A stretch of 64,000 nucleotides of DNA from Candidatus Poribacteria bacterium (GCA_965202725.1 OZ241845.1:794640-858639); one strand, 5' to 3'; shown: positions 1 to 63,004, counted from the stretch's first letter. The notes: generated by a model not told the origin, from the sequence alone. Program-made: numbers and translations.

Positions 1-404
1 TCGGTGGTGTCGTTAGCATTTTCCTTACGGGTGGTGTACTGAGTATCCCATCAATGGTGGGTTTCATTCTGCTATTTGGAATCGCCGTGCGAAACGGTAT
101 CATCTTGGTAACCCATATCAATACCCTACGTTCAGAAGGAATTCCGCTCTACAATGCCACTCTAAAGGGCGCGGAGGAACGGATTAGCCCAGTCCTCATG
201 ACTGCCCTGACAACAGGGCTAGGCATGCTACCATTGGCACTTGCACACGGTTCAGGTGCCGAACTCCAAAAACCGCTGGCAATTGTCATCAGTGGCGGTA
301 TGATAACTGCAACACTTTTGACACTCCTTGTGTTACCCGTCTTATATTATTTGGTCGAACTAAGTTGGTTGACAAGTTCTCAACGGCAAAGCGAGAAAAT
401 ATAG
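1..404 (+). CDS. RND-family (HME/CzcA-CusA-like) efflux transporter, C-terminal fragment; the 5' part lies upstream of the window
   Basis: The reading frame is open to the window edge. The translation ...GMLPLALAHGSGAELQKPLAIVISGGMITATLLTLLVLPVLYYL matches the conserved last TM helices of RND inner-membrane pumps. Confidence 0.6.
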   Translation, partial: GGVVSIFLTGGVLSIPSMVGFILLFGIAVRNGIILVTHINTLRSEGIPLYNATLKGAEERISPVLMTALTTGLGMLPLALAHGSGAELQKPLAIVISGGMITATLLTLLVLPVLYYLVELSWLTSSQRQSEKI

Positions 405-490
405 GAAATTGTAAACTTTTTTGAAACTTTTTTCGTTGAAAGGTGTCTAAGGGTAAGAAAGCAGAACTTAAATGAAGAGAGGGAATTAAG

Positions 491-1228
491 ATGAAACGCA
501 TGCATTTCTATTGTCTAACTTTAGTGGTAGTCCTTCTATTTGTTGGCATTAGTATGGTAAGCATGGCTGAAGTGGCTGTCTTACAAGTAGAGATTTCGGA
601 TGTTGTCAGCAACAGAGACGCGCACCAGATTCGACGGTTGTTAGCGCCGTGGGCTGATGCCGAAGACATCACCTTCGAGATGCCTGTTGATAAGAACGGA
701 AGAAAACGGATTTTCAGTACCCTTGTGAAGATTAAGCCCCGACAGGGGGTCTCTAAATACAGTGAAACACATACGTTTGATGTCTATGACATCATGCGTC
801 AACTCAACGACTCGCGTTTTCGAGGTAGACATGGGATCGGATTTTCTCGCGTCCTTAAAAGCGAGGTGACCATTCGGGGGGATCTCTTCGCACATCCCGG
901 TTTTGCTCGGAGTTACCTCCGAAACGTGCCGTCGTGGCGACGCTGGCGCCCGGACACCTCGAATATCCATCATGCAATGACAGCCGGTTATGATGAACAA
1001 AAGTTCGTCTTCAGTGCGAATCCTGAATTCGATCAACTACGGCTTGACGCAGCGGATAACGATAAACCTGTGAAGGTACAGGGGGTCATCACCGGGTTCG
1101 ATGGGCCTTACCCAATTGTGTCGGTACGTAAGTATAAGGTAGGTTATCACTTGAGAACAGGAGCATCGGAAGCATCTGGAACGCAGACAACGGGGAAGCC
1201 AACGTATGACTATCTTGAGGAACGTTAG
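491..1228 (+). CDS. hypothetical secreted protein (N-terminal signal peptide), directly downstream of the RND gene
   Basis: 245-aa ORF with a hydrophobic N-terminus (MKRMHFYCLTLVVVLLFVGISMVSMA) and a GGGAAT RBS-like sequence upstream. I recognise no family. Confidence 0.4.
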   Translation: MKRMHFYCLTLVVVLLFVGISMVSMAEVAVLQVEISDVVSNRDAHQIRRLLAPWADAEDITFEMPVDKNGRKRIFSTLVKIKPRQGVSKYSETHTFDVYDIMRQLNDSRFRGRHGIGFSRVLKSEVTIRGDLFAHPGFARSYLRNVPSWRRWRPDTSNIHHAMTAGYDEQKFVFSANPEFDQLRLDAADNDKPVKVQGVITGFDGPYPIVSVRKYKVGYHLRTGASEASGTQTTGKPTYDYLEER

Positions 1229-1241
1229 TGAACGCGAATAA

Positions 1242-2414
1242 CTACTGATACCCACCCGTGTTGAATAGGACAACGCGCTCGGAAGGTTCAACCATTCCTT
1301 TTGAGACGAGTTGTTCGAGTGCCGCGACTGTCGATGCACCTTCAGGACACGTCAGGATACCTTCGGTTGTTGGGAGTAAGTGCATTGCGTCGCGGATGGC
1401 TTCGTCCGTGACAGCGATTGCGGCCCCGTTGCTTTTACGAATCGCCTCTAAAATCAGAAAATCCCCGATCGCTTGTGGTACACGCAAACCGCTCGCAATC
1501 GTCTGTGCATTATACCAGGGCGTTGCTTCCGTTGCCCCTGCTTCCCACGCCTTGACAATCGGCGCACATCCTGTCGATTGCACCGAAATGAACCGAGGTC
1601 TTTTCTCGCCAATCCAACCGATCGCTTCCAATTCTGCAAAACCTTTCCACATCCCGACGATCCCAGTGCCGCCACCGGTAGGATAGATAATGACATCTGG
1701 CAGTTCCCAATTGCACTGCTCCGCAAGTTCGAACCCCATCGTCTTTTTACCTTCCACGCGGTACGGCTCTTTCAGGGTTGATACGTCGAACCAACCTTCC
1801 TGTTCCTTTCGCTCCGCCACAATTCTGCCAGCATCCGTAATTAAACCGTCAATCAACGTAACGTTTGCCCCAGCAAGTTGACACGTCCGCTTATTGAAGA
1901 CAGGTGTATCTTGTGGCATGAAGATATGTGCGGTCATCCCTGCAGCGGCAGCATAAACCGCAAGCGCTGTTGCTGCGTTGCCAGCGGAGGGGATTGCTAA
2001 TGCGCTCAGTCCGAGCGATTTGGCCTTGGATACCGCCATCGCCAAGCCGCGTGCCTTGAAGCTGCCCGTGGGTAAGCGCGATTCATCTTTCACCCAAACT
2101 TCGGTAAGCCCAAATCTTGCACCTAACCTTTGGGTGTGGACGAGCGGAGTCATCGTTTCACCAAGCGATACGATATCCACTGAGGTTGATATAGGCAGAA
2201 GCTCATTATAACGCCAAAGCGAAGACGGTCGAGATGCTAACGTATCGCGTGTCCACGTCTCTGACAACTGTTCAAGGTCATAACGGGTAAGCAGAGGCTT
2301 TCCACAAGCGTTACAGACGTTCTGTGGCACTGTGTGCGAATAGATCTCGCTACACTTACTACATTCAAGATGTTTTATAGTTTCACTGGGAGAGAAAGAG
2401 AAATGGTGATCCAA
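1242..2414 (-). CDS. thrC: threonine synthase (PLP-dependent, with N-terminal Cys4 zinc-ribbon)
   Basis: GSFKARG lysine motif, a glycine-rich PLP loop (GNAATALAVYAAAAG) and CSKCS...CNAC at the N-terminus. Length is 390 aa. Confidence 0.75.
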   Translation of the reverse strand: MDHHFSFSPSETIKHLECSKCSEIYSHTVPQNVCNACGKPLLTRYDLEQLSETWTRDTLASRPSSLWRYNELLPISTSVDIVSLGETMTPLVHTQRLGARFGLTEVWVKDESRLPTGSFKARGLAMAVSKAKSLGLSALAIPSAGNAATALAVYAAAAGMTAHIFMPQDTPVFNKRTCQLAGANVTLIDGLITDAGRIVAERKEQEGWFDVSTLKEPYRVEGKKTMGFELAEQCNWELPDVIIYPTGGGTGIVGMWKGFAELEAIGWIGEKRPRFISVQSTGCAPIVKAWEAGATEATPWYNAQTIASGLRVPQAIGDFLILEAIRKSNGAAIAVTDEAIRDAMHLLPTTEGILTCPEGASTVAALEQLVSKGMVEPSERVVLFNTGGYQ

Positions 2415-2449
2415 GAAAATTCCTTATATTCCTCAAAATGTGGCGGTGA

Positions 2450-3388
2450 TTAAGATTGCGCGAGCAGTTTGAGAATGATCGCTTTCATGCTGTGGAGGCG
2501 GTTTTCGGACTGGTTAAAGATGATTGAGCGCTCGTCGTTGACGAGTTCGCCTGAAATCTCATATCCGTGGTGTGCAGGAAGACAGTGCATAACCCGGCAC
2601 TCGTGTCCTTTTAACAGTTCGGCGTTCAATTGATACGGCATCATCTTCTCCAATCGGCGCGTGCGTTCTTTAGCGAAAGCCGAGTCCGTAAAGAATTCCA
2701 TGTCCACCCACGTATCCGTGTAGACAATATCGCTTTCAGCGATGACCTGTTCTAGTGAACTTTCAACACCTGAAGTATTGGTATCAATCGGCTTATAGAG
2801 TCCTTTCCGCGCAGCCTCCTCCCAGAGTGCTTTATCAACAGCAGCGGGATTCACCTCTGGTGCAACGACTGTGACCTCAACACCGACCTTCATGCCAGCA
2901 GCGATCAGTGAATTACAGACGTTGTTATGCACACCGATAAAACACAATTTGACCCCTTCGAGTCTGCCGAGGTGCTCTTGTATTGTCATCAGGTCCCCGA
3001 GGGCTTGCGTCGGGTGGTATCTGTCACAGCACGCGTTAATTACAGGCACGGTTGCAGCAGCAGCGGCTTCAACGAGTTCAGTATGTTTCAAGAAACGGGC
3101 TAAGATAATATCAACGTACGCTGAGAGTACGCGCATTTCGTCGCCGAGATCGGCTAACGCAAAGTTGGTCGTCCGCCAATCGAGGTAGTGCGCATGCCCA
3201 CCGAGTTGCGTGATGCCAACCTCACCCGCACATCGCGTCCGTGTGGAGGTCTTTTGGAAAAGCAGGCAGAGACTTTTCCCACCGACAGCGTGTCTATATT
3301 TTTCAGGATGGTTTTTTATTTTCAGGCTGTTTTCAACTGTTTCAAGAAGAGTTGTTTCTGACCAAGGTTTTAGTGTAATTAGGTGCAT
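2450..3388 (-). CDS. carbamoyltransferase of the OTCase/ATCase family (ornithine carbamoyltransferase-like, divergent substrate loop)
   Basis: STRTR carbamoyl-phosphate motif, HPTQ motif, HCLPAHHG motif. DTWVDME stands where OTCases have DxWxSMG. Confidence 0.65.
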   Translation of the reverse strand: MHLITLKPWSETTLLETVENSLKIKNHPEKYRHAVGGKSLCLLFQKTSTRTRCAGEVGITQLGGHAHYLDWRTTNFALADLGDEMRVLSAYVDIILARFLKHTELVEAAAAATVPVINACCDRYHPTQALGDLMTIQEHLGRLEGVKLCFIGVHNNVCNSLIAAGMKVGVEVTVVAPEVNPAAVDKALWEEAARKGLYKPIDTNTSGVESSLEQVIAESDIVYTDTWVDMEFFTDSAFAKERTRRLEKMMPYQLNAELLKGHECRVMHCLPAHHGYEISGELVNDERSIIFNQSENRLHSMKAIILKLLAQS

Positions 3389-3581
3389 AATTACCTCCGC
3401 AGTCGATCTTTAAAAATAAGAAACCTTAATTATACACAACTTTCCAACAGAAGTCAAATGTTTTCTGGTGGATCTTAGAATTAATTGAGGGCGGTTCATT
3501 ATGCTCAGCACACAAACGACCTACTGCCAGGGCACTTTCAAGTCGCAACACGCCACCGTAGGGGTGAGGTTTCCGCGCCAG

Positions 3582-3606
3582 AGGGGTTGGGTCTCCCAAC
3601 CCCTAC
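3582..3606. repeat. REP-like palindromic element GAGGGGTTGGG-tct-CCCAACCCCTAC
   Basis: Near-perfect inverted repeat. Related copies lie at 7628, 44841, 62978 and a degenerate one near 37025. Confidence 0.7.
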
Positions 3607-3630
3607 AAACAATATTTGTGAACCAGCCTT

Positions 3631-3695
3631 CACAGCCTAACAGGAAACCATGCTACAATAGGATGCCCCCTGCTTGCGGGGGCGGGAGGGTAAGG
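3631..3695. repeat. composite dispersed repeat: A motif (reverse, CACAGCCTAACAGGAAACCATGCTACAA) followed by B motif (CCCCCTGCTTGCGGGGGCGGGAGGGTAAGG)
   Basis: Matches copies at 7877-7955, 50661-50814, 53283-53408, 57943-57969, 20806-20836 and 44771-44800. Confidence 0.7.
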
Positions 3696-3707
3696 TAGGT
3701 GGCGGAT

Positions 3708-4103
3708 TCATGGGCGGACGATTTGTTTTCGTTTGAGGGTTTCGATGTCCTGCGTGAGGGTTTGAATCTGCTTTTCGAGGGATGCGTCCCTTCTGCTACG
3801 CAACGCTATGAGGATTTGTGGAATGCCGACGGCTAAGACGATAAGGGCAATGAGGGCGACGATAAGCGTTGTGATGAGCGAAAGTCTTTTATCTATACTC
3901 TCTATCTGCGTATCTATACCCTTAGCTATACTCTCTATCTGCGTATCTATACCCTTTATCTGTGTGTTGATATATTCTTTGGTTCTAGCTTCTGACTCTT
4001 TAATCTTGGCATCAATTCTCTCTATGTCCTGGACAGTCAACTCACCGAGAGCCGGCAGCGCGATCGCAGCACAGAATATCGAGATTGCGAGGATCCTTTT
4101 CAT
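3708..4103 (-). CDS. small signal-peptide/coiled-coil protein with C-terminal TM helix; contains a tandem 33-bp coding repeat
   Basis: MKRILAISIFCAAIALPALG signal, repeated KGIDTQIESI(A/D)K units encoded by direct DNA repeats at 3893-3975, and a hydrophobic LITTLIVALIALIVLAVGI segment. Same strand as the adjacent restriction-modification gene, immediately downstream of it. Confidence 0.45.
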   Translation of the reverse strand: MKRILAISIFCAAIALPALGELTVQDIERIDAKIKESEARTKEYINTQIKGIDTQIESIAKGIDTQIESIDKRLSLITTLIVALIALIVLAVGIPQILIALRSRRDASLEKQIQTLTQDIETLKRKQIVRP

Positions 4104-4247
4104 GGGGTGTTCCCGTGCCAATTTGATTTATCCCCCTGCAAAGGTGCGAGGGTGGCAGATATGCCTTGTGGCAAGCTTAGCAGTGCCACCCACAACTGGT
4201 CAGAATAGTATAGTAGAAGGACAAGAATGATGCAAGTTGTTTTTCGA

Positions 4248-7200
4248 CTACCTCAATGCTGGTAAGCCGCTAACGATGTCCACCGTCTCCAAACTCACCG
4301 TAATCACCTGCCCAATCAGACGAAGAATATACTCCGGGTCCTCAGCACGATTCGGATCGTTCACAATTCCGCTTCGCTTGTCTACTTTCACACGGTATTG
4401 ATCCACAACCCACTCTAACGCAGACCGATTCCCTAACCGATATTCAAGGGCTTCCCCAGGAATACCCTCTAACGTCAGAAAATCGTTGTATCTGAGCCGC
4501 GTCTTATCTTTGGGGAATTTCATTCGCACTACAGACAAGTCCACCTGCATCCCGGGCGTTTCGATGGCATTAAATTTAGCGTATTCGGGTTGGGCTTCGT
4601 AGTTAAGGTGGAGGTCTGCTAATCGTGATCCGGCGTTGGCAAAATGCCAGAAGTCTTCGGCGAAGGGGATATGGGGTAAATCGCGCTTGAGGTTTTCTTG
4701 ATACCGCTCGCGGTAATGGGGATGATGCAAGAGTCCGTAGGTATAGTGGAAGATGTCCCACTTGGCGATAGTGTCGTCTCGGTAGTGGGTTCGGAAGTGT
4801 GCCAACGCCCAATCGGTGATGTTTTCACGTCGGTTTGAACCGTCCTCGTCATAGGTATAGAAGGGGAAACATTGATTCGCTTCAAATGCTAAATCTAAAC
4901 TGCATATCCGATTTGAAACAAGACAACCAAAGCCTTTTCTATTACCGACACCAGCGACACAAATTATCTTATTTTCCCTTTCTGTTTCGGGTGTAGGAAA
5001 AATAGACGGAAACACATAGACACATTCGTTCATCATCCTACTAAAGTAAAGGTGTGATTTTGTGAATGGGCGGTAAAGAGCCCTGCGAACGTTTTCAGCG
5101 GAAAACTCAGCCAATTGACTCTGTTTTAATTTTGACTTTAGGCTTCGGGTCCACTTGAGTTGAGTATCGTCAATTTCTATAAAATCGTTAACGTTGATGT
5201 TTCTGTTGTTTCGTCGTTCCCATTTAGATACCTTTCCATTGTAGTGTTCTATCATTCGTTGAACATTTTCAGTGAGGGCGGCATCATTGAAGTTATAAAC
5301 CCAAGCATCCCGATTTGTCACTACACCGAGGCTGTAGGTTTTGAAAAGCGTTCCCGCCACATCACCCGCACTCGCCTTTGCTGCTTTAGTGCCCATCGGA
5401 AGAAAGGTATCAAAAGCAACATGCAGCCCTCCTGTGAGCCACGTATGCCGTTTATCAGGTATGAGCTCCTGCCACGCGACATTGCCGACATGCTGCTTTT
5501 CTTCTAAAAACGCGAACGTTCGCTCTTTAGGCAGATCTGCTGTTGCATCAGTGTAGAGAATTCGCGCAAGCGAATGCCTAACCTCCCGCTTTGATTTCAC
5601 GAGGATATTGATACTCACACCCACCTGAATACCGAACACGTTGGAATCCCCGGGCTGCCCCTTGCGAACATTGCCACCCAAATCCAGAATGTAGAGCAGA
5701 TCAAAGTTATTGACGAGATGTTGGCGCACGCCATCAAACATCTGAGCATCCATAAAACTGTTGTTCGTTATGAATGCTACAATACCCTCATCGTCCAATG
5801 TATCCGTTGCCCATCGAATCGCCTTCACATACGGATCGTAAAGTTTGTTTTTCAGCTGCGCCCTGGAAGCAGCGGCATACGTGGCTCGGACCCGTGCGTC
5901 AACGCCTGCATGGGGACGGTTTCTGTTGTTATCGTTCTCATTGTTCTGACTCGCATTGTAAGGCGGATTCCCAATCACCACAAACATCGGAAGCTCTCGC
6001 TGCTCCTCAACTCGCAGGGTATTCTCAGGCGTGAAGTAGGAAAACTGCCCTGTTTCATGGGGCGCATCCATCAGCTGGAACGTATCAAACGTATCTACAA
6101 AACAGATATGCGGAAAAGGTTCGTAACTGCCGGTTCTCTCAAAATAGGCGTGTTCTATGTTGAGACTAGCGATGTAGTAAGGGAGTAGCATCACCTCGTT
6201 GCAGTGGAGTTCCTCGCGGTATTTTTGCGGGAGCCGCCTGCCTTGAATCTCTTGCATGAGACGGACGATAAAATTGCCGGTGCCTACGAATGGATCGATG
6301 ATGTGAACCCCCCTATCCGAAAGTGAGCGTCCGAACTCCGTCTTGAGAACGTGTTCAACGCTTTTCACCATGAAGTCAACGATCGGCTGCGGTGTGTAGA
6401 CAATCCCGTGTGTATCCGCAACATCCACGGAGAACCCTTGAAAGAACTGCTCGTAGATGGTATTAAGGAATGACTGCTTCTGTGAGAAATCGGTGATAGT
6501 CGCAGCAGTTTTCTCAATCGCGGTATAGAACGGATCCAAAGGGCGCAGGAACTCGGAACGGCTGAGCGAGCGGCGCGTCAGGATATGGATAACCTTTTCA
6601 ATCTCTTGAGCGATGATATTCCTATGCGTGAAATCGGGGTTGTCAAAGACGGTGCGGAAAATTCGCTCAGTGAGGAGGTGTTGAATGAGCATTTCTTCAA
6701 CCTGTGCCTCAGCGAGGTTCGGATCAATAGATGCCCGGCATTGCTGATGGAAGTTCGCAAACGCTTGTCGGAAAGACGGATTGTCCCGCATCTCGGTCGC
6801 AATCCGTTTCGCGACACCGCGCCCTAAGACAGGCACCTTTGCTTTGAACTCCTCAACCGCAGCATACCAATCGACGATGTTTGCTTCTTGATACGCAAAG
6901 AAAGTAGTGAGCACATTGATAAGGCTCTGTGGATCCGTGAGGTCTACATCCAGGCGGAGGAGTCCGTTCTGATAGAGAAGGGCATGGGTCGGAGATTGAA
7001 AGATGATATTTTTGAAGGGGTATCCCGCCGCTGACTTTTTTCGGGCTTCTGTCAGGAGGTCGTCCTGTGTATCTTTAGCTTCCCAGTGTCCGTGTGGTAA
7101 GCCATAACCGTCAACAACTTCCCCATCTATGCGGATCCTTTTGTAACCGCCGGTAGCGAGGGGGAGGGTGCGTGTCTTTTCACAGACGAGGGTGAGCCCT

Positions 7201-7346
7201 GCCCGTCGGCAGTAGTTCTGGAGGAGGTTTTGAAAAGCAGTTCGGACTGTGCCTTCGTGTTCAGCACCAAGTTCTGCGTATGCTTTGAGTTCGCTGTAGT
7301 AGTTTCTGATGGGTTTATGTGTGGGTTTGATATTGAGGTCAGGCAT
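4248..7346 (-). CDS. single-polypeptide Type IIG/IIL restriction-modification enzyme (MmeI-like: N-terminal PD-ExK nuclease, gamma-class N6-adenine MTase, C-terminal TRD)
   Basis: 1032 aa. N-terminal D-x9-EAK (IDGEVVDGYGLPHGHWEAKD) resembles the MmeI nuclease motif. Motif I is IIDPFVGTGNF and motif IV is GNPPYNAS. A long C-terminal region follows with no helicase motifs. Confidence 0.6.
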   Translation of the reverse strand: MPDLNIKPTHKPIRNYYSELKAYAELGAEHEGTVRTAFQNLLQNYCRRAGLTLVCEKTRTLPLATGGYKRIRIDGEVVDGYGLPHGHWEAKDTQDDLLTEARKKSAAGYPFKNIIFQSPTHALLYQNGLLRLDVDLTDPQSLINVLTTFFAYQEANIVDWYAAVEEFKAKVPVLGRGVAKRIATEMRDNPSFRQAFANFHQQCRASIDPNLAEAQVEEMLIQHLLTERIFRTVFDNPDFTHRNIIAQEIEKVIHILTRRSLSRSEFLRPLDPFYTAIEKTAATITDFSQKQSFLNTIYEQFFQGFSVDVADTHGIVYTPQPIVDFMVKSVEHVLKTEFGRSLSDRGVHIIDPFVGTGNFIVRLMQEIQGRRLPQKYREELHCNEVMLLPYYIASLNIEHAYFERTGSYEPFPHICFVDTFDTFQLMDAPHETGQFSYFTPENTLRVEEQRELPMFVVIGNPPYNASQNNENDNNRNRPHAGVDARVRATYAAASRAQLKNKLYDPYVKAIRWATDTLDDEGIVAFITNNSFMDAQMFDGVRQHLVNNFDLLYILDLGGNVRKGQPGDSNVFGIQVGVSINILVKSKREVRHSLARILYTDATADLPKERTFAFLEEKQHVGNVAWQELIPDKRHTWLTGGLHVAFDTFLPMGTKAAKASAGDVAGTLFKTYSLGVVTNRDAWVYNFNDAALTENVQRMIEHYNGKVSKWERRNNRNINVNDFIEIDDTQLKWTRSLKSKLKQSQLAEFSAENVRRALYRPFTKSHLYFSRMMNECVYVFPSIFPTPETERENKIICVAGVGNRKGFGCLVSNRICSLDLAFEANQCFPFYTYDEDGSNRRENITDWALAHFRTHYRDDTIAKWDIFHYTYGLLHHPHYRERYQENLKRDLPHIPFAEDFWHFANAGSRLADLHLNYEAQPEYAKFNAIETPGMQVDLSVVRMKFPKDKTRLRYNDFLTLEGIPGEALEYRLGNRSALEWVVDQYRVKVDKRSGIVNDPNRAEDPEYILRLIGQVITVSLETVDIVSGLPALR

Positions 7347-7579
7347 AAGGTTGCTCCGTGTATCGTTAAAATTGGGTTGTGGACAATCTCAATTATACAC
7401 GGATATAGGCGGCGGTTGCAAGTGGAAATTTGAGCGGCTATCCCCCGGAAGGTCAACGCCTAATGCGTCAGCAAGTTTCAATCTGACTCCGCCGCGTCAA
7501 AAGACTAAGTTTTAAAACGCAAATTTTGCGCAGCACTTGACTTTGTGCGTTGTGCTATGGTATTATAATAATTATAGAG

Positions 7580-7706
7580 GGTTTTCGGTGAAATCATGTT
7601 TTCGCCCAATTTTTGAGACACGCAGAAGGGTTGGGAAACCCAACCCCTACGATTGCCTAAGTTCTCAACCCCACGATGGCATCATTTCATCACTTAAACG
7701 GAAACT
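7580..7706. repeat. MITE-like ~130-bp dispersed intergenic element (copy 1), embedding a REP-like hairpin
   Basis: Aligns with 36966-37094 (GGGTTTTCG...ATGTTTTCGCC.AATTTTTGAGA.ACGC...ACGATTGCCTAAGTTCTCAA...GGCATCATTTCAT.ACTTA). Confidence 0.6.
7628..7650. repeat. REP-like palindrome GGGTTGGG-aaa-CCCAACCCCTAC
   Basis: Perfect 8-bp stem, same family as 3582-3606. Confidence 0.7.
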
Positions 7707-7876
7707 CTCTAATTACAATGCCAGCTTAAAAATAAATCTGTAGGGTGGGTAAAGCGATAAATACCCCCAAAACACCGGCAAACCTAAGGGACACATACCC
7801 GTTTTTCAAGGCATACCTTGTGTGAGTAGGTGTAGCGAAACCCAACACGTCACTTTAGGACTTACGCAGCATACTC

Positions 7877-7955
7877 TTTTGTAGCATCCCCCTTGCTTGC
7901 GGGGGCGGGGGGGTAATGTCAAACCTGCAGAGCCTAATAGGAAACCATGCTACAA
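7877..7955. repeat. composite repeat: A-fragment + B motif (CCCCCTTGCTTGCGGGGGCGGGGGGGTAATG) + A motif (reverse)
   Basis: B then A order, mirroring the A then B copy at 3631-3695 on the other side of the restriction-modification gene. Confidence 0.7.
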
Positions 7956-8022
7956 ATGCGGGGAGCAGAATGCATGTGTTTTTTCACATATCTCCGCCTC
8001 TTTTAGCACAGGGAGCAGATCA

Positions 8023-10467
8023 ATGATTTTGTCCAATAACGTCCTACGATGCTTCTGTCTAATGTTGATACTGTCATTCGGTGCCTTTACCGCCGCCGAT
8101 GGTGAAAAGGATACCCTCAATTTTTCTAAAAATGGCGCGCTATTTTTAGAACGGTACTGTTTCAGTTGTCACGCTGGTGACCAACCCGCTGCTGAACTCT
8201 CCTTGGATTCCTATACAGATAGCCATTCCTTAATTAAGGATCGTGAGGTTTGGGATCGGGTGCTGGACATGGTAGAAACAACACAAATGCCGCCAGCAGA
8301 TAATGAACAACCATCAATAGAAGCATTGGAATCGTTTATTGCGCATATTGAAGCAATCTTTGAACACGCGGACCGCACGGCGAAGCCCGACCCTGGACGC
8401 GTTACAGTCCGCCGCCTCAATAGGGTGGAATACAGAAATACTGTCCGCGACCTCCTCGGTGTCGATTTCAACCCTACCGAAAAGTTTCCTGCAGATGATG
8501 TCGGACACGGGTTTGATAACATTGGTGATGTCCTTTCTATGTCCCCACTGCTAATGGAACGTTACCTTGAAGCCGCGGAGGCAATTGTCTCGCGTGTTAT
8601 CGTATTGGATCCACTGCCTCCCTCCAGATCCTACCGAAACGGGAAAACTCTTGAGCCACTCCACGATGATGTTCCTGATGAACGTTACCGCCTGCTCGAT
8701 CCCACGGCTACAGAGCCGTGGAAATCGGGACCATTTACAACGGGCGCAGACAATTTCAATATAGCACCCGACGTAGAAATTATCTACCACGCGACGCTCT
8801 ATGCAGAGACGGAGCGTGATACCCCTGTAGAGGCCGTCTTATTCATTCAAGGTGACGAATTAGCGCACCTAACCCCACCGGAGAAACTTTCACGCTTAGT
8901 GGGTGTAGATCCGTCAGTGGATAATAACATCAAGGTTTTAAAGGCTTTTAAGATTACCGCTCGCAGCCCTGAAAAAAACCAGACGATTAAAGTCCATATT
9001 ACCGGTATTCCGAACATTGAAAACGTCGGCATCGCAATGCTTAAACCAAAGGAAGGTGAACCAGACGCTAAACTTCAGATTCGTGTGCTCTGGTCAAAAG
9101 GTCCGTTAGAAACCAGACCTAAATCTCATTTCGAGATTCTGGCATGCACACCGGGAATCTCCCAAGCCGAACAGACCCGTGAGGTACTCACGCGCCTGCT
9201 ACGCCGCGGCTATCGCCGTCCACCGACCGAAAACGAAATAGAACACCTCGCGCAGTTTGCTGAATCTGTTCAAGCGGACGGAGCGTCGTGGGAAGCAAGT
9301 GTCCAAGCAGCGATCAAAGTTATTCTCTGTTCACCCAAATTCCTGTTTCGATGGGAGCTCGATGCCCGACCACAAACGCCGGAACCGCATCCGATTGATG
9401 AATTCCAACTCGCTGCGCGGCTCGCCTATTTCATTTGGAGCAGCATGCCAGATGACGAACTCCTTGAACTCGCTGAGACCAAGCAACTCACGGCTAACCT
9501 GGAAGCTCAAGTTAAACGTATGTTAGCTGACGCAAAGGCATCTGAATTAGGGAGCAATTTCGGGGCCCAATGGCTTCAGATTCAACGGTTAACGACAGTC
9601 GCGCCGGATCTCGAAAAATTTCCATATTTCACTGGCAGCTTGCGCTTGGCTATGCAAAAGGAGACAGAACTTTTCGTTGAATCGATCTTTCGCGAAGACA
9701 GGAGTCTGCTTGATCTGATTGATGCCGACTATACCTTCCTTAATCAACCTATCGCGAGCCACTATGGTATCGTTGATACACAAGGAAATTGGCGGAAACA
9801 TAAGAACCCAGTCCCGGGCGGTGAACGGATTCGCGGTAAATCGTTCCGGCGCGTTAAGATACAAGGCACCTCACGCGGTGGAATACTCAGCCACGCCAGT
9901 GTGCTGACGGTGACCTCTAACCCAACGCGCACCTCGCCCGTCAAAAGGGGACGCTGGGTACTCGAACAGATACTCGGTACGCCGCCACCACCGCCACCAC
10001 CAGATGTCCCAGAATTAGAAGAAGAGGCGGCGGTGGTTCATGGAACTACGTTGCGAGAACGCCTTGAGCAACACCGGGCGGATCCAGCATGTGCTAACTG
10101 CCACGCGAAAATGGATCCTATCGGATTTGCTCTCGAAAACTATAATGCAATCGGCGCGTTTCGCTGGAAAGACGGCGAATTGGATATCGACACAACAGCC
10201 GTATTACCGGACGGAACAGTGCTACAACACGGCATCGTAGACTTGAGACGCGTCATCTTGGATCGAAAACAGCAGTTCCTACGTTGCTTGACAGAAAAAT
10301 TGTTAACCTACGCTTTGGGTAGAGGATTAGAATATTACGACCGACCCACTGTTGAACATATCGTGGCACAACTCGAAACCAAGGACTACAGAAGTTCGGT
10401 ACTGATTACAGAAATCGTCAAAAGCGATCCATTCCGGTTACGACGTGGCACAGCAATCAAGCGATGA
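8023..10467 (+). CDS. DUF1592/DUF1588/DUF1585-type (PSD1-like) secreted protein with cytochrome-c-like CxxCH heme-binding motif
   Basis: Signal peptide [32 protein letters not shown] is a CxxCH motif. Large conserved C-terminal region with [26 protein letters not shown] lies 8 nt upstream of the ATG at 8023. The listed ORF start 7897 is a TTG inside the repeat. Confidence 0.7.
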
Positions 10468-11492
10468 TACGTATGACAACTCATGTAATCCTTTTTCTTA
10501 TCGTAATTCTCCACTCCGGGTGTTATACCCTTCCTTATGAAACACCAAATCAAAGCCCAACTTTACAGCTGGAGGAAAAGTACTCTGTTTATTTAGATTC
10601 TACATGGACGGCAGAACAAGCAGACGCGCTTTTAAAGGTTTTTGAATCCATACCCGCAGTGCTGAACCTACGTTTTTCTCAATGGCGCATAAGTGACAAG
10701 GATTTGGAAAACGGTATTAAGATTGAATTTAAAGATAAGTTAAAATTTGTTACAATTAGTAGATACATCTTTCCCATTGAAGGGAATCGAGAGTCGTTGT
10801 CACCCGGAAAGGAGCTATATTTTGCTGTCGTTCAATTCCTAACAGAGCGTGGGACAAACAGAGCCATAATAGAATTAATACTGCAAAAGAGGTATGGTGT
10901 ATACGTACCCTCTTATGATTCCTTAACCGAGGAGACTCCAAGCCAAACATCAAAACGCTATTCAAATTTTGAGAATGAAGACCTGATGCTCATTATATCC
11001 GTATTTGAAGAATTCCCGCAGACACTCCATAAAATACCGAGGCTAGAATATATAGTTCGTAGAATTGATAGGGGTGAAGATGAAGATGAAAGAGGTATGA
11101 GTTATGCTCGGATAGGTCAGGGGCACATAGAGTTTGCTGAATCCATTTTTCACCGCCGTAACGCTAATACGACTCGGCGCGTAATTGCCCACGAAAAGGC
11201 ACATTTTATATGGGCTTTCGTTTTTAATAGTGCACTGAGAGCGGATTGGGCAAAACTTGGGGGATGGCATCGAGATGCAAGCGAATCGGGCTGGTCAACA
11301 ACCAAAGATCGATCAGCTTTTGTATCTGATTATGCTTCTGAAAAAAATCCAAATGAGGATATGGCGGAAAGTATCGCACATTATCTTATATCGCCCCATA
11401 AACTCCGTTCCTGTTGTCCTGAGAAGTATGCGTTTATTCATAAGCGCATGCTTATGTATGCTGAAAGATACGAACCCGCCAATGTTATGTGA
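10464..11492 (+). CDS. hypothetical lipoprotein-like protein with HExxH zinc-metallopeptidase motif; visibly AT-richer than neighbours
   Basis: ATGA start overlaps the stop of the upstream gene. N-terminus is [20 protein letters not shown], and VIAHEKAHFIW is an HExxH motif. Confidence 0.45.
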   Translation: MIRMTTHVILFLIVILHSGCYTLPYETPNQSPTLQLEEKYSVYLDSTWTAEQADALLKVFESIPAVLNLRFSQWRISDKDLENGIKIEFKDKLKFVTISRYIFPIEGNRESLSPGKELYFAVVQFLTERGTNRAIIELILQKRYGVYVPSYDSLTEETPSQTSKRYSNFENEDLMLIISVFEEFPQTLHKIPRLEYIVRRIDRGEDEDERGMSYARIGQGHIEFAESIFHRRNANTTRRVIAHEKAHFIWAFVFNSALRADWAKLGGWHRDASESGWSTTKDRSAFVSDYASEKNPNEDMAESIAHYLISPHKLRSCCPEKYAFIHKRMLMYAERYEPANVM

Positions 11493-11621
11493 TAGCACCT
11501 GTTTAGTTTGATTAACCTATATTCCAGGAAATCACGTTAAATAATGATACATACACACCTCTCGGACTAACCTCAAAAAATCTATCTATGGTAAACTGAG
11601 TGACAGGGATCGGAGATACTT

Positions 11622-12671
11622 ATGAGCACATTAAAACAATTTTCACGTCGATCATTTTTAAGTGGTTTAGCGGTCGGCGCTGCTCTACCGTGGTTGGAAA
11701 CAATAGGTTCCCTTGCATCTTGGGCAGACACGTTCCCGGACGGGAAAACGATTACCCGTTACCCTGATCCATCTGTTGAAGTGATAGCCCCACGTTTTGG
11801 AAAGTATAAAATCGGCAACGCTGTTGTGGAACGGTTATGGACCGGGGCGCGCTGGTCAGAGGGACCTGTCTGGTTTGGGGACGGAGGATTCCTTCTCTGG
11901 AGTGACATTCCCAATAACCGTATCCTGAAATGGCAGGAATCCACTGGCGCAGTAAGCGTCTATCGTAAACCGGCTAACTTCACCAACGGACACACACGCG
12001 ACCGACAGGGTAGACTTATTAGTTGTGAACACGGCACCCGACGCGTTACGCGCACTGAGTATGATGGAACAATTACCGTCCTCATAGACAACTTCGAGGG
12101 CAAACGTTTCAACGCACCCAACGATGCTGTTGTCCATCCCGATGGACATATCTGGTTTACGGACCCCGGATACGGTATCCTTTCGCATTATGAAGGACAT
12201 AAAGCAGAATTTGAATTACCAACCGCCGTTTATCGCCTGAATCCTGACACTGGCGAATCAGTCGTTGTGACGGAAGAAATCGAAAGACCGAACGGTATCT
12301 GTTTTTCACCCAATTATGATAAACTTTACGTTGCTGATACAGGTACACCGAAAAACATCGTTGTTTATGAGGTTGTAAGCGGTGAACGTTTGGCTAACAA
12401 ATTGGTGTTCGCAGATATGACACCCGGGGCCGCCGATGGGCTTCGGTGCGATATTGACGGTAATTTATGGGCAGGTACAGGTTGGGTCGGCAAAGGTTAC
12501 GACGGGGTCCATATCTTCGCACCAGACGGAACGCTTATCGGTAAAATTCATCTGCCAGAGATTTGTGCAAATATCTGTTTCGGGGGCGTAAAACGAAACA
12601 GACTCTTTATGGCAGGCAGTCAATCTCTCTACTCAGTTTATGTCAATGCGCAAGGCGTGCCCTACTTTTAG
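11622..12671 (+). CDS. SMP-30/gluconolactonase/LRE-like beta-propeller protein with twin-arginine signal peptide
   Basis: SRRSFLSGLAVGAALPW TAT signal, GGAGAT RBS, 349 aa. N-terminal 35 aa closely resemble those of the DUF1552 protein downstream. Confidence 0.6.
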   Translation: MSTLKQFSRRSFLSGLAVGAALPWLETIGSLASWADTFPDGKTITRYPDPSVEVIAPRFGKYKIGNAVVERLWTGARWSEGPVWFGDGGFLLWSDIPNNRILKWQESTGAVSVYRKPANFTNGHTRDRQGRLISCEHGTRRVTRTEYDGTITVLIDNFEGKRFNAPNDAVVHPDGHIWFTDPGYGILSHYEGHKAEFELPTAVYRLNPDTGESVVVTEEIERPNGICFSPNYDKLYVADTGTPKNIVVYEVVSGERLANKLVFADMTPGAADGLRCDIDGNLWAGTGWVGKGYDGVHIFAPDGTLIGKIHLPEICANICFGGVKRNRLFMAGSQSLYSVYVNAQGVPYF

Positions 12672-12848
12672 TCTGAGGATTACCTAAAAACATCTCACCC
12701 TTTTAGCTATGAAAGAGAGTTCCCGCTAAACATTTGACACGACTATAAGGCTATAGTTATAATAGCTAACATAAGCAGTTGTGGAGAGCGATGGTTACCA
12801 TCCTCTATGAACGAAAACGCCATACAAAAAGTTTAGGAAGGAATCGTT

Positions 12849-14189
12849 ATGAACACTTCGAAACAACTTTCACGTCGTACATTCTTACGTGGTCTGGGTG
12901 TCAGTATCGCCCTACCGTGGCTGGAAGCCATGGGGCCTGTCACATCATGGGCGAACGCGCCTACAAGTGCACAGACAGCTCCGAACCGGATGGCTTTCCT
13001 TTACGTACCTAACGGGAAGATCATGGAGGATTGGACTCCAAAGCAGGTGGGAGCTGACTACGAACTCACGGCTATCTTGAAACCGTTGGAAAGTGTAAAA
13101 GACAAAATGCTGGTCCTCAGTGGACTGACCGCTGACAAAGCACGTGCAAACGGTGATGGCGGTGGGGATCATGCTCGAGCCATGGCAGCCTTCCTGACAG
13201 GTGCCCAGCCTCGTAAAACTGACGGTGCTGACATTCACGCCGGTGTTTCTGTTGACCAAGTTGCAGCATCGCACGTCGGCAATCGGACCCGGATGCCCTC
13301 CCTCGAGCTCGGTATCGATCCCGGAAGAAGAGCAGGTAATTGCGACTCCGGCTATAGCTGTGTCTATTCATCAACTCTCTCATGGCGTTCTGCGACTCAG
13401 CCGCTGCCCAAAGAGGTAAATCCAAAACTCGCTTTCGAGCGTCTCTTCTCAACCCTCCCCGATACAGAACGGGTGGAACGCGACCAGAAGCGAAAGAGCG
13501 TCCTCGATTTCGTGATTCAAGACTCAAAAGACTTGCGCCGACACGTCACGGGGCACGATGTCCGCAAACTCGATGAGTACTTCTCCGCTATCCGAGACGT
13601 TGAACTGAGAATCGAAGCATCCGAAAAGTTCCCGCCTATCGAAAGCCCCGATTATACCGGACCGGAGGAGATTCCAGAAGATTATCAAGAACATCTGCGC
13701 CTTATGATGGACCTGATGGTCCTCGCATTTCAGGCGGATGTAACCCGTGTTACGACCTTCGTCCTCGCAAATGAGGGAAGTAACAGACCCTACCCGTTTG
13801 TTGATGTCTCAGAGGGACACCACTACTTGTCGCATCACAGTGGCGATCAAGAAAAAATAGAAAAAATCAAAAGGATTGATATTTTCCATTCCGAGCAGTT
13901 GGCATACTTCTTGGAAAAACTCGCCGCAACGTCTGAAGGCGACGGATCACTCTTGGATCACTCGATGATTCTGTACGGTAGCGGAAACGCAGACGGCAAC
14001 CGACACAGCCATCACGATCTCCCTATCATACTTGCAGGCGGCGGTTGCGGCACGCTCAAGACAGGGCGTCATATCCGGTATCCAAAAGAGACTCCACTCA
14101 ACAACTTATGGCTGTCAATGCTCAATCGTATGGATGTTGCGGTCGCGCAAATAGGCGATAGTACAGGCAGTTTATCAGCCCTCTCTTAA
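12849..14189 (+). CDS. DUF1552 family protein (TAT signal), the usual partner of DUF1592/PSD1-type proteins
   Basis: MNTSKQLSRRTFLRGLGVSIALPWLEAMG N-terminus typical of DUF1552. AGGAAGG RBS. Confidence 0.7.
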   Translation: MNTSKQLSRRTFLRGLGVSIALPWLEAMGPVTSWANAPTSAQTAPNRMAFLYVPNGKIMEDWTPKQVGADYELTAILKPLESVKDKMLVLSGLTADKARANGDGGGDHARAMAAFLTGAQPRKTDGADIHAGVSVDQVAASHVGNRTRMPSLELGIDPGRRAGNCDSGYSCVYSSTLSWRSATQPLPKEVNPKLAFERLFSTLPDTERVERDQKRKSVLDFVIQDSKDLRRHVTGHDVRKLDEYFSAIRDVELRIEASEKFPPIESPDYTGPEEIPEDYQEHLRLMMDLMVLAFQADVTRVTTFVLANEGSNRPYPFVDVSEGHHYLSHHSGDQEKIEKIKRIDIFHSEQLAYFLEKLAATSEGDGSLLDHSMILYGSGNADGNRHSHHDLPIILAGGGCGTLKTGRHIRYPKETPLNNLWLSMLNRMDVAVAQIGDSTGSLSALS

Positions 14190-20805: not shown

Positions 20806-20874
20806 TTTGTAGCATAACCTGTTAGGTTGTGCTACCCATATTTAACGGAAAAAACAATACGTCTTAGGTAATGT

Positions 20875-44770: not shown

Positions 44771-44865
44771 TCTAACATGTTATGCTACAAAAGGGGGGCC
44801 GCTGCCCGCGGTTCGCATTGGGCGATTTGTGGTTCTCCCATAGGTTTAGGAAACCTAACCCCTAC
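44771..44865. repeat. A-motif-like sequence (CTAACATGTTATGCTACAAAAGGGGGG) plus REP-like palindrome (TAGGTTTAGG-aaa-CCTAACCCCTAC)
   Basis: Same families as 3582-3695, degenerate. Confidence 0.5.
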
Positions 44866-50660: not shown

Positions 50661-50814
50661 CATGCTATTCTAAAATAGGTAGGCTGTGCCGTTGTAGCAT
50701 GGTTTCGTGTTAGGCTGTGCCTTACCCTTACCCCCCTACCCCCCGCAAGCAGGCGGGATGCTATTCTTGTAGCATGGTTTCGTGTTAGGCTGTGCCTTAA
50801 GTTGTAGCAAGGTT
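50661..50814. repeat. A-motif cluster: degenerate A, A, B (reverse), A, partial A
   Basis: TTGTAGCATGGTTTCGTGTTAGGCTGTGCC at 50692-50721 and 50767-50796. Between them lies the reverse complement of the B motif. The cluster is immediately 3' of mod1. Confidence 0.75.
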
Positions 50815-52511: not shown

Positions 52512-52956
52512 TGTGTTCCGTCCCATGCCTCAAAATGTGTATAAATTTTTCTGGGGGCACGATCTGTATTTGCTCATAACTACCTAAATCCAATAGGTCC
52601 CGGTCTCGACTTACGATATAATCGGCTGATACTGCCACAGCGCAGGAGATAATCATGTCGTCTTTAGGGTCGCGTTCTATGACACGAATTTCTGGCAATT
52701 GTGCAACTATAATGCTAATATCTTTCAGGTAATCGATAAAAATTTCTGCTTTTTCTGAGGGATATGTATAACGATTCCGTATGTGTGGTTTCTCTAAAAG
52801 TACATGGCGAATTTCCTGTAAAATTTCTGCCGACGTGTAAAGATTGACATTTTCCTGACACTGAGACACCAAGGCTGCTGTCAATCCCTGGGTAAGAAAA
52901 GCACTTACGGCGACAACGCTATCAAGGACAACGCGTAGTTTTCTTCTGTTTGTCAT
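52492..52956 (-). CDS. PIN-domain toxin (VapC-like)
   Basis: RVVLDSVVAVSA (N-terminal Asp) ... CAVAVSADYIVSRDRD acidic residues typical of PIN. Start placed at MTNRRK (ATG 52956). Its 3' end overlaps the mod1 start by ~20 nt. Confidence 0.5.
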   Translation of the reverse strand: MTNRRKLRVVLDSVVAVSAFLTQGLTAALVSQCQENVNLYTSAEILQEIRHVLLEKPHIRNRYTYPSEKAEIFIDYLKDISIIVAQLPEIRVIERDPKDDMIISCAVAVSADYIVSRDRDLLDLGSYEQIQIVPPEKFIHILRHGTEHNENQTR

Positions 52957-53224
52957 ATTCTTCCTGTCGACACTCAGCAACAGCGCGCTCAACATCTTGA
53001 TAGACTTCTTCTTCACTGATCCCTCTATTTTGTTCATGGACGCTTTTCATTAATTGCAAAAGTTTCGCCCAATTTTCAGGGGTCGTTGATTTCTTAGGCA
53101 TGATCACTACACAATCACCCTCAATCCGTGCATCCACGATATCGCCCTTCTTGAGCCCTAAACTTTCTCGGATCTGTTTCGGAATAGTTATCTGTCCATG
53201 TTCGAGAATCTTGGCAATTGCCAC
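52922..53224 (-). CDS. AbrB/MazE/SpoVT-family antitoxin
   Basis: MAIAKILEHGQITIPKQIRESLGLKKGDIVDARIEGDCVVIMPK is a swapped-hairpin AbrB signature. GTG start. Overlaps the PIN gene by ~35 nt. Confidence 0.5.
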   Translation of the reverse strand: MAIAKILEHGQITIPKQIRESLGLKKGDIVDARIEGDCVVIMPKKSTTPENWAKLLQLMKSVHEQNRGISEEEVYQDVERAVAECRQEEYDKQKKTTRCP

Positions 53225-53282: not shown

Positions 53283-53408
53283 GTTGTAGCATGGTTTCCT
53301 GTTAGGCTGTGTCTCTTCCGTAGCATGGTTTCCTTTAGGCTGTGCCTCCTTCATAGCATAGCCTCCGCGCTTGCGGGGGCGTAGCATAGTTTCCGATTAG
53401 GCTGTGCC
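53283..53408. repeat. A-motif cluster (3 copies) with B-like fragment CCTCCGCGCTTGCGGGGGCG
   Basis: GTTGTAGCATGGTTTCCTGTTAGGCTGTG, GTAGCATGGTTTCCTTTAGGCTGTGCC, GTAGCATAGTTTCCGATTAGGCTGTGCC. Lies between the toxin-antitoxin pair and mod2. Confidence 0.75.
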
Positions 53409-53526
53409 GTTCCGTTCCCCGTAATAAACAAGCGGACATCCGCGCTTAATTCCGCACGTACCTTTCAGTGTGTCTTCTCGTAACAGAGAAACCACCTCAT
53501 CAGGTTCTTGACTGAAGAGTTCGGCA

Positions 53527-57942: not shown

Positions 57943-57969
57943 GCACAGGCTAACGGTTTCCTATGCTAC
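57943..57969. repeat. A-motif copy (reverse: CACAGGCTAACGGTTTCCTATGCTACA) plus partial copy, between res and the mod array
   Basis: Overlaps the res stop codon region. Confidence 0.6.
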
Positions 57970-62977: not shown

Positions 62978-63004
62978 GTAGGGGTTAGGAGACCTAACCC
63001 CTAC
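62978..63004. repeat. REP-like perfect palindrome GTAGGGGTTAGG-aga-CCTAACCCCTAC
   Basis: 12-bp stem, preceded by the AAAAGCGCTTTT palindrome. Possible terminator for the binding-protein gene. Confidence 0.7.

Follow-up and report, generated by a model that had tools for sequence, protein, structure and literature searches.

REP/BIME repeats in the spacers around a DrdV-like restriction-modification gene in a Candidatus Poribacteria genome

The analysed window is a 64-kb stretch of DNA (64,000 nt) from a Candidatus Poribacteria bacterium (GCA_965202725.1 OZ241845.1:794640-858639), in which a DrdV-like single-chain restriction-modification (R-M) gene is flanked on both sides by copies of short repeats, here named A, B and REP1. 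All three motifs are repetitive extragenic palindromes (REPs) of the Candidatus Poribacteria genome, that is, GTAG-headed hairpins, and they form bacterial interspersed mosaic elements (BIMEs) that are associated with a REP-associated tyrosine transposase (RAYT). A first-pass annotation of the window had read the segment as an island of about 4.3 kb bounded by direct repeats. Comparison with related genomes points to a different history, in which, probably, a long-resident gene first lost its neighbours and RAYT-linked REPs and BIMEs then moved into the spacers on either side.

In this history, the R-M gene would long have resided between a PSCyt/PSD gene and an OTCase gene, where relatives have Ldh_2 and NACHT/STAND genes beside it. 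Both neighbours would have been lost in this lineage, leaving about 50 nt of Ldh_2, and the resulting spacers would have been filled largely by REP1, A/B and other small repeats. The OTCase side would also have gained a small membrane-protein gene that is found at other loci, and a RAYT located about 0.7 Mb away would maintain the REP family. The repeats and their structure, their association with the RAYT, the synteny, the Ldh_2 remnant and the breakpoints are observed, whereas the order of the events and the spread of the units by the RAYT are the parts of the account that we infer.

Flanking repeats

Coordinates are positions within the window unless a locus label (L003, L031 and so on) is given. 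The features of the locus, with lengths of proteins in amino acids (aa), are as follows.

2450-3388, - strand: OTCase, flanking gene
3579..3606, - strand: REP1, a GTAG-headed perfect palindrome, GTAGGGGTTGGG-aga-CCCAACCCC on the - strand; second REP type
3627..3658, - strand: left A unit, a REP with its GTAG head on the - strand (TTGTAGCATGGTTTCCTGTTAGGCTGTG)
3659..3696, + strand: left B unit, a REP with the degenerate head TAGGATG and the GC hairpin GCCCCC-tgcttgc-GGGGGC
3708..4121, - strand: gene for a 137-aa protein with signal peptide, coiled coil and transmembrane segment; no family match
4248..7346, - strand: DrdV-like Type IIL/IIG single-chain R-M gene, 1032 aa
7347..7485, - strand: R-M gene 5' region and Ldh_2 remnant; aligns with L033 7861-7992 and L027 748-881
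7574..7710, no strand: long imperfect hairpin (resembling a miniature inverted-repeat transposable element, 'MITE-like') with REP1 (7623-7650) at its tip
7724..7856, no strand: dispersed repeat of ~130 nt, 69-76% identity to L017 4563-4693 and 7444-7501
7878..7919, + strand: right B unit with a complete TTGTAGCAT head and a CCCCC/GGGGG hairpin
7924..7955, - strand: right A unit, GTAG head on the - strand
8024-10467, + strand: PSCyt/PSD protein, flanking gene

A repeat scan pairs the copies on the two sides of the gene: A at 3627-3658 and 7924-7955 (32 nt, 91% identity), B at 3659-3696 and 7882-7919 (38 nt, 87% identity) and the GTAG-headed palindrome REP1 at 3579-3606 and 7623-7650 (28 nt, 86% identity). 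Chance levels were obtained from pattern searches of the window and of shuffled controls. The A core has 6 matches in the window (0.20 expected), the B core 3 (0.01 expected) and the REP1 palindrome 7 (0.00 expected), and none of these counts was ever reached by the shuffles. The direct repeats reported in the first-pass annotation are thus real, all three motifs being far beyond chance, and their order was also given correctly: REP-A-B on the left and B-A on the right, read on the + strand throughout, with the copies in direct orientation. The right palindrome and the 'MITE-like' element had been placed after B-A; they actually lie inside it, to the left of B-A, in the hairpin at about 7574-7710.

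The individual copies can be traced to the wider repeat family. The 26-nt core of left A recurs unchanged in the copy at 53286 and in the consensus of ~14 Poribacteria genomes. A-B composites recur as 64-70-nt units, and both flanking junctions have counterparts in L031, a locus on the same 3.28-Mb metagenome contig as the window and ~0.7 Mb away: the left A-B junction matches L031 4885-4953 (86%) and the right B-linker-A junction matches L031 7780-7848 (89%). Left B starts 12 nt past the stop codon of the 137-aa gene. Considered as a possible REPIN, an inverted REP doublet that folds with its spacer into one long hairpin, the right B-A composite has a 10-bp outer stem and folds no better than shuffles (z = -0.79). 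REP1, which as DNA has a 10-bp stem (-11.3 kcal/mol), has further copies at 7623-7650, 44841-44865 and 62978-63004. The hairpin at 7574-7710 folds at -20.2 kcal/mol (z = -3.2), better than all 200 shuffles, and no second full copy of this element was found in the window or the compared loci. The 7724-7856 repeat contains the GTAG-like motif GTAGGTGTAGCGAAACCCAAC and lies between REP1 and B-A here and beside an A array in L017.

Comparison with related genomes

Relatives were compared via their OTCase orthologues and the surrounding context. The interval between PSCyt and OTCase is occupied in them as follows.

L030 (OTCase 85%): PSCyt and OTCase 325 bp apart with nothing between; no A, B or REP1
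L026 (OTCase 91%): TnpB fragment, Ldh_2 and a small open reading frame (ORF)
L027 and L028 (OTCase 88%): Ldh_2, DrdV-like gene (77% aa identity), small ORF or BrnT, and a NACHT/STAND gene of 1550-1580 aa
L033: PSCyt, Ldh_2, DrdV-like gene (81% aa identity), NACHT, OTCase

The interval therefore varies among relatives and is empty in L030; a comparison with the empty site in related strains had been suggested in the first-pass annotation. The empty site of L030 is without any A/B copy. In L027 and L028 the orthologous R-M gene occupies the same position, and A/B is absent from the whole 21 kb. In L033, REP units number only three, each of them short and single, and these are differently placed.

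The R-M gene has 76% nucleotide identity to its counterpart in L027, a level similar to the 77-83% of the neighbouring housekeeping genes. Homology to L027 extends 137 nt upstream of the start codon, across a conserved promoter of the R-M gene (TTGCAA-18-TATAAT, 7421-7392 on the - strand). A DNA alignment identifies ~50 nt from the 3' end of Ldh_2 at ~7440-7485, reading LADALGVDLPGD in the window and LADELNVEIPWDK* in L033. Because this remnant lies upstream of the R-M gene, the ancestor of the window had Ldh_2 directly upstream. No protein-level remnant was found in a tblastn search of the relatives' Ldh_2, NACHT, TnpB fragment and small ORFs against the window, and the piece of Ldh_2 shows up at the DNA level only.

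Synteny and homology break at ~3476 and ~7485, and neither breakpoint coincides with the repeats. Past ~3476 the relatives show a REP unit and then the NACHT end, whereas the window shows REP1, A, B and the small gene. The conserved unit is 4248-7485 and the lineage-specific replacement flanks are 3476-4247 and 7485-7995; the repeats lie inside these replaced flanks, not at the breakpoints. The A/B copies of the window are 87-91% alike, compared with 81-89% to the L031 copies 0.7 Mb away, so that the pair is not unusually similar.

No integrase, transposase or recombinase gene is present at the locus, a tRNA scan of positions 1-14000 found none, and no att-like repeats were found at the PSCyt-OTCase interval. 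The GC content is 0.43-0.52 inside the segment, as in its flanks, and the composition profile has no island signal. A mobile island bounded by repeats is not supported, and the breakpoints, the Ldh_2 remnant and the copy identities all speak against the earlier proposal that the segment was inserted into an A-B-A element or is mobilised between the repeats. The first-pass annotation had itself named, as evidence that would overturn this proposal, orthologous loci with the island but without the repeats, and L027 and L028 are such loci. The flanking 'direct repeats' are much more plausibly two independent BIME fragments in adjacent spacers than the ends of a cassette.

Structure and spread of the repeats

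The head TTGTAGCAT is common to A and B, which carry it on opposite strands; the composite is therefore a series of REPs in alternating orientation, not a combination of two unrelated motifs. The first-pass annotation had treated A and B as separate motifs; both are GTAG-headed REPs, inverted relative to each other. The GTAG head is present in A, B and REP1 and is degenerate (TAGGATG) in the B unit at 3659. The flanks of foreign matches and the collected variants identify A as one form of a general unit, TTGTAGCAT-stem-loop-stem, in which the stem occurs in mutually compensating versions (AGCC/GGCT, AGGC/GCCT, AACC/GGTT, AATC/GATT and AAAC/GTTT).

The hairpin was evaluated in a covariation alignment of 24 short-type units (18 distinct), oriented on the GTAG strand. 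Positions G1, T2, A3 and G4 are invariant, and 95% of the cells of the 8-bp stem are paired. Compensatory change occurs at 2 pairs (AU/GC and CG/AU/GC/UA), with 15 cells altered on both sides. The covariation score was equalled in 0 of 500 shuffles, and slid registers pair at 17-44% only. The REP hairpin thus covaries across Poribacteria. The A-type unit alone has a weak fold (-0.5 kcal/mol). The spacer between NACHT and OTCase (L024 1040-1090, L008 2460-2500, L033 16080-16115) holds an orthologous REP in two types: two of the three genomes have the A type there (GTAGCATGGTTTCCTGTTAGGCTGTGC), and one has the short type (GTAGCATAGCCTGTTAGGCTGTGC). Their sole difference is a GGTTT/AG indel, which indicates that the two forms interconvert through a small indel.

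The basic module of a BIME consists of two direct REPs with an inverted REP between them (PMC2817692), and the features seen in these units are those by which GTAG-tagged REPs are defined (PMC3733652; PMC3479197). A-B-A composites, which occur in the window at 50691-50799 and in L031 at 4880-4990, consist of two direct units with an inverted one between and therefore correspond to this basic module. A longer A-B-A-B-A-B-A series, with a period of ~78 nt and conserved linkers, is located at L031 7780-8035. Same-orientation arrays with a period of 32-34 nt, which are atypical for BIMEs, occur as well (window 53286-53410, L031 5725-6140).

A scan of species-representative genomes found the exact A core at 24 loci in ~14 Candidatus Poribacteria metagenome-assembled genomes, with 1-8 exact cores per GTDB representative genome; the 23-nt core is conserved over many species. 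Within the window, and likewise at the foreign loci, A copies are extragenic, the lone exception being a copy in the duplicated RAYT 5' end of L003. REPs are characterised by more than 100 copies per genome; here, units number 27 in 10.7 kb of L031 and ~13-16 in the window, where variant units of the A family are also found at 20809, ~28060, 44765 and 57925/57943, adjoining unrelated genes.

An Rfam scan of the whole window matched no family, so A/B is not a known RNA, and a scan of viral contigs for the A core returned 0 matches, which leaves no phage link. The A motif was also inspected by eye as a sigma-54 promoter or a CsrA site; both were rejected, as the spacing did not fit and GGA is missing in most variants.

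RAYT transposase

L031 contains a 246-aa RAYT ORF (P0136), which is 80% identical to the RAYT of L003, a 249-aa ORF. The RAYT start codon of L031 comes 10 nt after the end of an A-B-A composite, at least 13 inverted units start within the last RAYT codons, and three more A-B periods follow 2 kb further. The L003 ORF lies between direct units on the left and inverted units on the right. The gene is therefore bracketed by inverted REPs or REP clusters in both L031 and L003, and a homologue in L014 also adjoins units. This bracketing by A/B composites and inverted units identifies A/B as the REP/BIME population of the RAYT. The repeats do have a connection to a mobile-element system, namely a RAYT with its REPs.

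The L003 ORF matches the NCBIfam family REP_Tyr_transpos (NF047646) with E = 1.7e-15 and 57.1 bits (cut-off 80) and scores 21.5 against Pfam Y1_Tnp (PF01797), just below the threshold of 23. Some homologues with 60-65% identity carry a precomputed PF01797 match or the JGI name 'RayT'. Scores below the curated cut-offs together with homologues labelled in this way indicate a divergent subfamily. A profile of 25 homologues searched against the PDB has E. coli TnpAREP (4er8) as its sole significant match (E = 4.9e-5). The N-H-V-H motif and the tyrosine of YVLNN are invariant in the 25 homologues and align to H59/H61 and Y115 of TnpAREP. By analogy with E. coli TnpAREP, the RAYT would disseminate the units through cleavage of single-stranded DNA beside the GTAG-hairpin. 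A literature search found no description of a RAYT-REP system in Poribacteria, and its apparent hits look like author-name matches; the REP/BIME-RAYT system of Candidatus Poribacteria is apparently undescribed so far.

Two further features of the RAYT loci were observed. The array 3' of the RAYT in L031 (5725-6140) consists of at least 13 same-orientation units with a tandem period of ~32 nt and alternating loops CTATTAGG and CTGTCAGG. In L003 (1160-1300), the RAYT 5' end and the upstream A unit are tandemly duplicated (~120 nt), which fuses an extra copy of the N-terminal MSQNEPKSFYRRNLPHIQ peptide in frame.

Restriction-modification gene and its surroundings

The R-M gene is intact. Its 1032-aa product consists of an N-terminal PD-(D/E)xK nuclease, an ISP coupler, a gamma-class N6-adenine methyltransferase (MTase; NPPY) and a Type_ISP_C target recognition domain (TRD). 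The protein is collinear over its full length with DrdV (PDB 7LO5; E = 4.5e-206, residues 21-1030 against 17-1026), and LlaGI and LlaBIII match over the MTase-TRD half only. The nuclease motif D...ExK (IDG...WEAKD) is kept in the N-terminal alignment with DrdV, and the NPPY motif is present (GNPPYNA). PADLOC assigns the protein to REase_MTase_IIG (PDLC03621) at full length (positions 6-1014 of 1024). A Pfam scan of the protein returned Type_ISP_C, ISP_coupler, N6_Mtase and Eco57I only, and reported no MmeI-specific domains. Of the earlier description as an MmeI-like Type IIL enzyme, the single-chain Type IIL/IIG class stands, on the 7LO5 and PADLOC matches, and the family has to be changed to DrdV. 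The structure 7LO5 is that of the Type IIL enzyme DrdV, which has an MTase and a TRD akin to those of Type ISP enzymes; DrdV methylates one strand and cuts at a fixed distance only after several target-bound molecules oligomerise (bioRxiv 10.1101/2021.01.06.425610). The 1032-aa enzyme is predicted to behave in the same manner.

The 137-aa gene, which holds 33-nt tandem repeats at 3889-3975, did not belong to the ancestral locus; relatives have the NACHT/STAND gene in its place. Together with its 5' region (3708-4247), it has homologues at other loci only, and its protein is 44% identical to a homologue in L020 (6328-6786) and 34% identical to one in L025 (84-591). L020 and L025 are two of 24 loci that were chosen solely for their A unit, and the L020 homologue starts 30 nt from A. 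The link between this gene family and A units may be coincidental.

A sigma70-like promoter with a TG extension (TTGACT-18-TATTAT) is located at 7537-7566 on the + strand, aimed at PSCyt, which is 460 nt away. A transcript from this site would carry a leader made of repeats, namely the REP1 hairpin, the 7724-7856 repeat and B-A.

Type III locus, defence genes and repeat distribution

The same repeat family occurs in the Type III R-M locus of the window, as stated in the first-pass annotation, which had linked the two loci through it.

50694, 50769, 53286, 53320 and 53381: A copies in the Type III locus
50691..50799, - strand: intact A-B-A composite, downstream of Type III mod1
53284..53410, - strand: four-REP array (A, A, GC-hairpin variant, A), between a PIN/antitoxin pair and mod2

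About nine spacers of the window hold units. Five of these flank R-M genes, and the other four adjoin unrelated genes: a methyltransferase/GGT pair, a sulfatase, a GDSL lipase/Ig-repeat protein pair and a solute-binding protein. The 46 ORFs that adjoin A copies in the 24 foreign loci are mostly metabolic, with three related to defence, and the 25 most frequent families near foreign A copies include one ResIII/NOV_C match. In an all-frame search of these 24 loci (8 kb each), L004 and L011 proved to hold DrdV-like genes, L012 mod and res, L023 mod, and L008 and L024 NACHT. As to an enrichment beside defence genes, a test of which had been suggested earlier, a proportion of 7 in 24 foreign A loci looks high. 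The figure is uncalibrated against a genome-wide background, and REPs would gather passively wherever long spacers occur in variable regions. These counts hint at a non-random association and are treated as secondary here.

The Type III locus contains mod1 (50835-52526), mod2 (53527-55266) and a third mod copy broken into three ORFs (56089-57790), followed by res (57966-60620). The ends of the mod copies are conserved (80-94% nucleotide identity) and their centres are divergent, a layout to be expected from shuffled TRDs or from past tandem duplication. REP arrays are located directly downstream of mod1 and mod2. A putative endonuclease gene of the Uma2 family (60842-61432) and a PIN-domain toxin gene (52492-53037) lie within or next to the locus and add to the defence-island character of the 50-61 kb region.

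A recurrent arrangement in the compared genomes is a DrdV-like gene followed by a NACHT/NPHP3_N STAND NTPase of 1500-1580 aa, sometimes with a BrnT toxin gene between them. The pairs are located as follows.

L027: 887-9348
L028: pair present
L033: 8001-16053
L032: 8001-15665
L034: 8001-16267
L036: 8001-13721; NTPase shorter or split (642 aa and a 175-aa NCH2 ORF)

The pair occupies two chromosomal sites among different Poribacteria, and the NTPase is lost in the window. PADLOC gave no match for the two full-length NTPases tested (L033 and L027). The DrdV-like and NACHT/STAND genes may form a conserved two-gene defence module. REP units are found downstream of NACHT at both genomic sites, and their flanks are non-homologous, which indicates independent insertions. 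The possibility that the NACHT-downstream REP is part of a shared mobile DrdV-NACHT module was rejected on the same grounds, as the flanks at the two sites are unrelated.

Alternative explanations

Several observations weigh against the history of gene loss and REP colonisation. The A-B...B-A geometry is exactly that of a split A-B-A-B-A array, and a single disrupted BIME is possible. For the nearest relative, L024, whose OTCase is 92% identical (aa), the sequence is a contig of 2 kb, and recent mobility of the gene within the species may have gone unnoticed. The R-M gene is patchy among relatives, being absent from L026 (91%) and L030 (85%), and the DrdV-NACHT pair is present at a second site in L032, L034 and L036; patchy presence and a second site imply that the gene module moved or was lost several times. 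A defence gene lies within 8 kb in 7 of the 24 foreign A loci, and 5 of the ~9 REP-bearing spacers of the window flank R-M genes. Finally, the action of the RAYT on A/B units is something we infer, and its scores are under the curated family cut-offs.

The geometry would be accounted for if a discrete 4.3-kb island had been inserted into an A-B-A or A-B-A-B-A element, or were mobilised or excised through recombination of the A/B direct repeats. In favour of this, the A-B on the left and the B-A on the right are directly oriented, uninterrupted A-B-A modules are seen at 50691-50799 and L031 4880-4990, and PSCyt and OTCase are immediate neighbours in L030, with an empty interval. The L030 site, however, holds no A/B, the same-site orthologues in L027 and L028 are likewise without them, and the three short units of L033 are placed differently. 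In addition, the Ldh_2 remnant persists at ~7440-7485, REP1 and other sequence separate the breakpoints (~3476 and 7485) from the repeats, the copies are 87-91% identical like any pair of the family, and the locus has no recombinase gene, tRNA or GC shift. A target duplication of 38 nt would also be unusual. Taken with these points, such an island is very unlikely. Even less credible is the reading of A/B as cis-regulatory elements specific to R-M expression (terminators, mRNA stabilisers or operator arrays), to which hardly any probability is given. The B hairpin 12 nt past the stop of the 137-aa gene and the position of B-A, ~70 nt upstream of the PSCyt start and downstream of the sigma70-like promoter at 7537-7566, would suit such a role, and REPs in E. 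coli are reported to influence termination and mRNA stability (PMC3733652). A terminator scan, however, made no call at either A or B, and a T tract is missing; the Rfam scan was without a match, units occur in both orientations upstream and downstream of many unrelated genes, and the A-type unit alone folds weakly.

A further explanation assigns the repeats an active part, with REP/BIME clusters as recombination substrates or targets that remodel the defence loci of Poribacteria. REP-REP recombination or RAYT breaks would then lie behind the loss of Ldh_2 and NACHT and the triplication or shuffling of mod, and REPs would be truly enriched at defence borders. It would fit that both replaced flanks are made of REP-type repeats, that a REP unit is present in the NACHT-OTCase spacer (L024, L008, L033) and downstream of the second-site NACHT (L034), and that REP arrays directly follow the duplicated segments of mod1 and mod2. 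The 7 of 24 foreign A loci with homologues of DrdV-like, mod, res or NACHT genes would also agree with it, as would a post hoc count in the window that places units in ~5 of 10 R-M-adjacent spacers versus ~4 of 32 others. On the other side, no junction has a scar of REP-REP recombination, a deletion leaves the small gene of the left flank unexplained, and the NACHT-flanking REPs of L033 are inverted, so that recombination between them would invert and not delete. The non-homologous REP flanks at the two NACHT sites indicate independent insertions, and the neighbours of A copies are mostly housekeeping genes (3 of 46 adjacent ORFs are defence-related). The counts are uncalibrated against a genome-wide background, and long dispensable spacers in variable regions would collect REPs passively. 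Remodelling of defence loci in this way is accordingly considered unlikely, and it is slightly more doubtful still that the RAYT-REP/BIME system preferentially marks and remodels the borders of DrdV-NACHT and Type III mod/res modules. Colonisation by REPs and BIMEs of spacers around a resident gene remains the preferred reading.

Discussion

The repeats of Candidatus Poribacteria resemble the Y/Z REPs of E. coli with TnpAREP/YafM and the REPs and REP doublets forming hairpins (REPINs) of Stenotrophomonas and Pseudomonas, as they are likewise short, imperfect extragenic palindromes with an unpaired 5' GTAG. They share with GTAG-tagged REPs and BIMEs the alternation of two REP types and compensatory stem changes, and with known RAYT loci an HUH/Tyr transposase gene bracketed by inverted REPs, with a BIME on one side. 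They differ from known REPs in their phylum, in a longer head (TTGTAGCAT) whose 3' part pairs into the stem, and in the weakened hairpin of the A type. Long same-orientation arrays with a 32-34-nt period are atypical of known BIMEs, and the Poribacteria RAYT differs from known RAYTs in an insertion of ~100 aa and in its sub-cut-off scores. Known REP families usually turn over fast, whereas the Poribacteria A core is conserved over many species.

The R-M enzyme shares with DrdV (7LO5/7LVV) its full-length collinearity, D...ExK nuclease, helical coupler, NPPY MTase and ISP-type TRD. It differs in context, as relatives usually pair the gene with a large NACHT/STAND NTPase that is absent in the window. 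With the MmeI family it has in common the single-chain nuclease-MTase-TRD logic and the REBASE class, but it has no MmeI Pfam domain and its MTase-TRD half belongs to the Type ISP (LlaGI/LlaBIII) lineage. As in defence islands and hotspots, the cargo of the PSCyt-OTCase interval varies, from nothing to Ldh_2 with a TnpB fragment, Ldh_2-DrdV-(BrnT)-NACHT, or DrdV with a small gene. Unlike integration hotspots, the interval has no integrase, tRNA or att-like repeats, and it looks like the product of loss and replacement around an old gene, not of a single inserted cassette.

A mobile R-M island bounded by repeats would have meant a new route for the transfer of defence genes, and the evidence points to something more ordinary. 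Loss of genes followed by colonisation of the spacers by REPs can mimic an island with terminal repeats, which calls for caution in scans that use direct repeats as a sign of mobility. The recurrent pair of DrdV-like and NACHT/STAND genes offers a starting point in the search for a possible two-gene defence module. If remodelling by REPs were true, it would amount to a repeat-based means of swapping, duplicating and deleting immunity genes in sponge symbionts. For the Poribacteria themselves, which are uncultured sponge symbionts, the REP/BIME-RAYT system could serve in population studies of REPINs and RAYTs and in strain typing.

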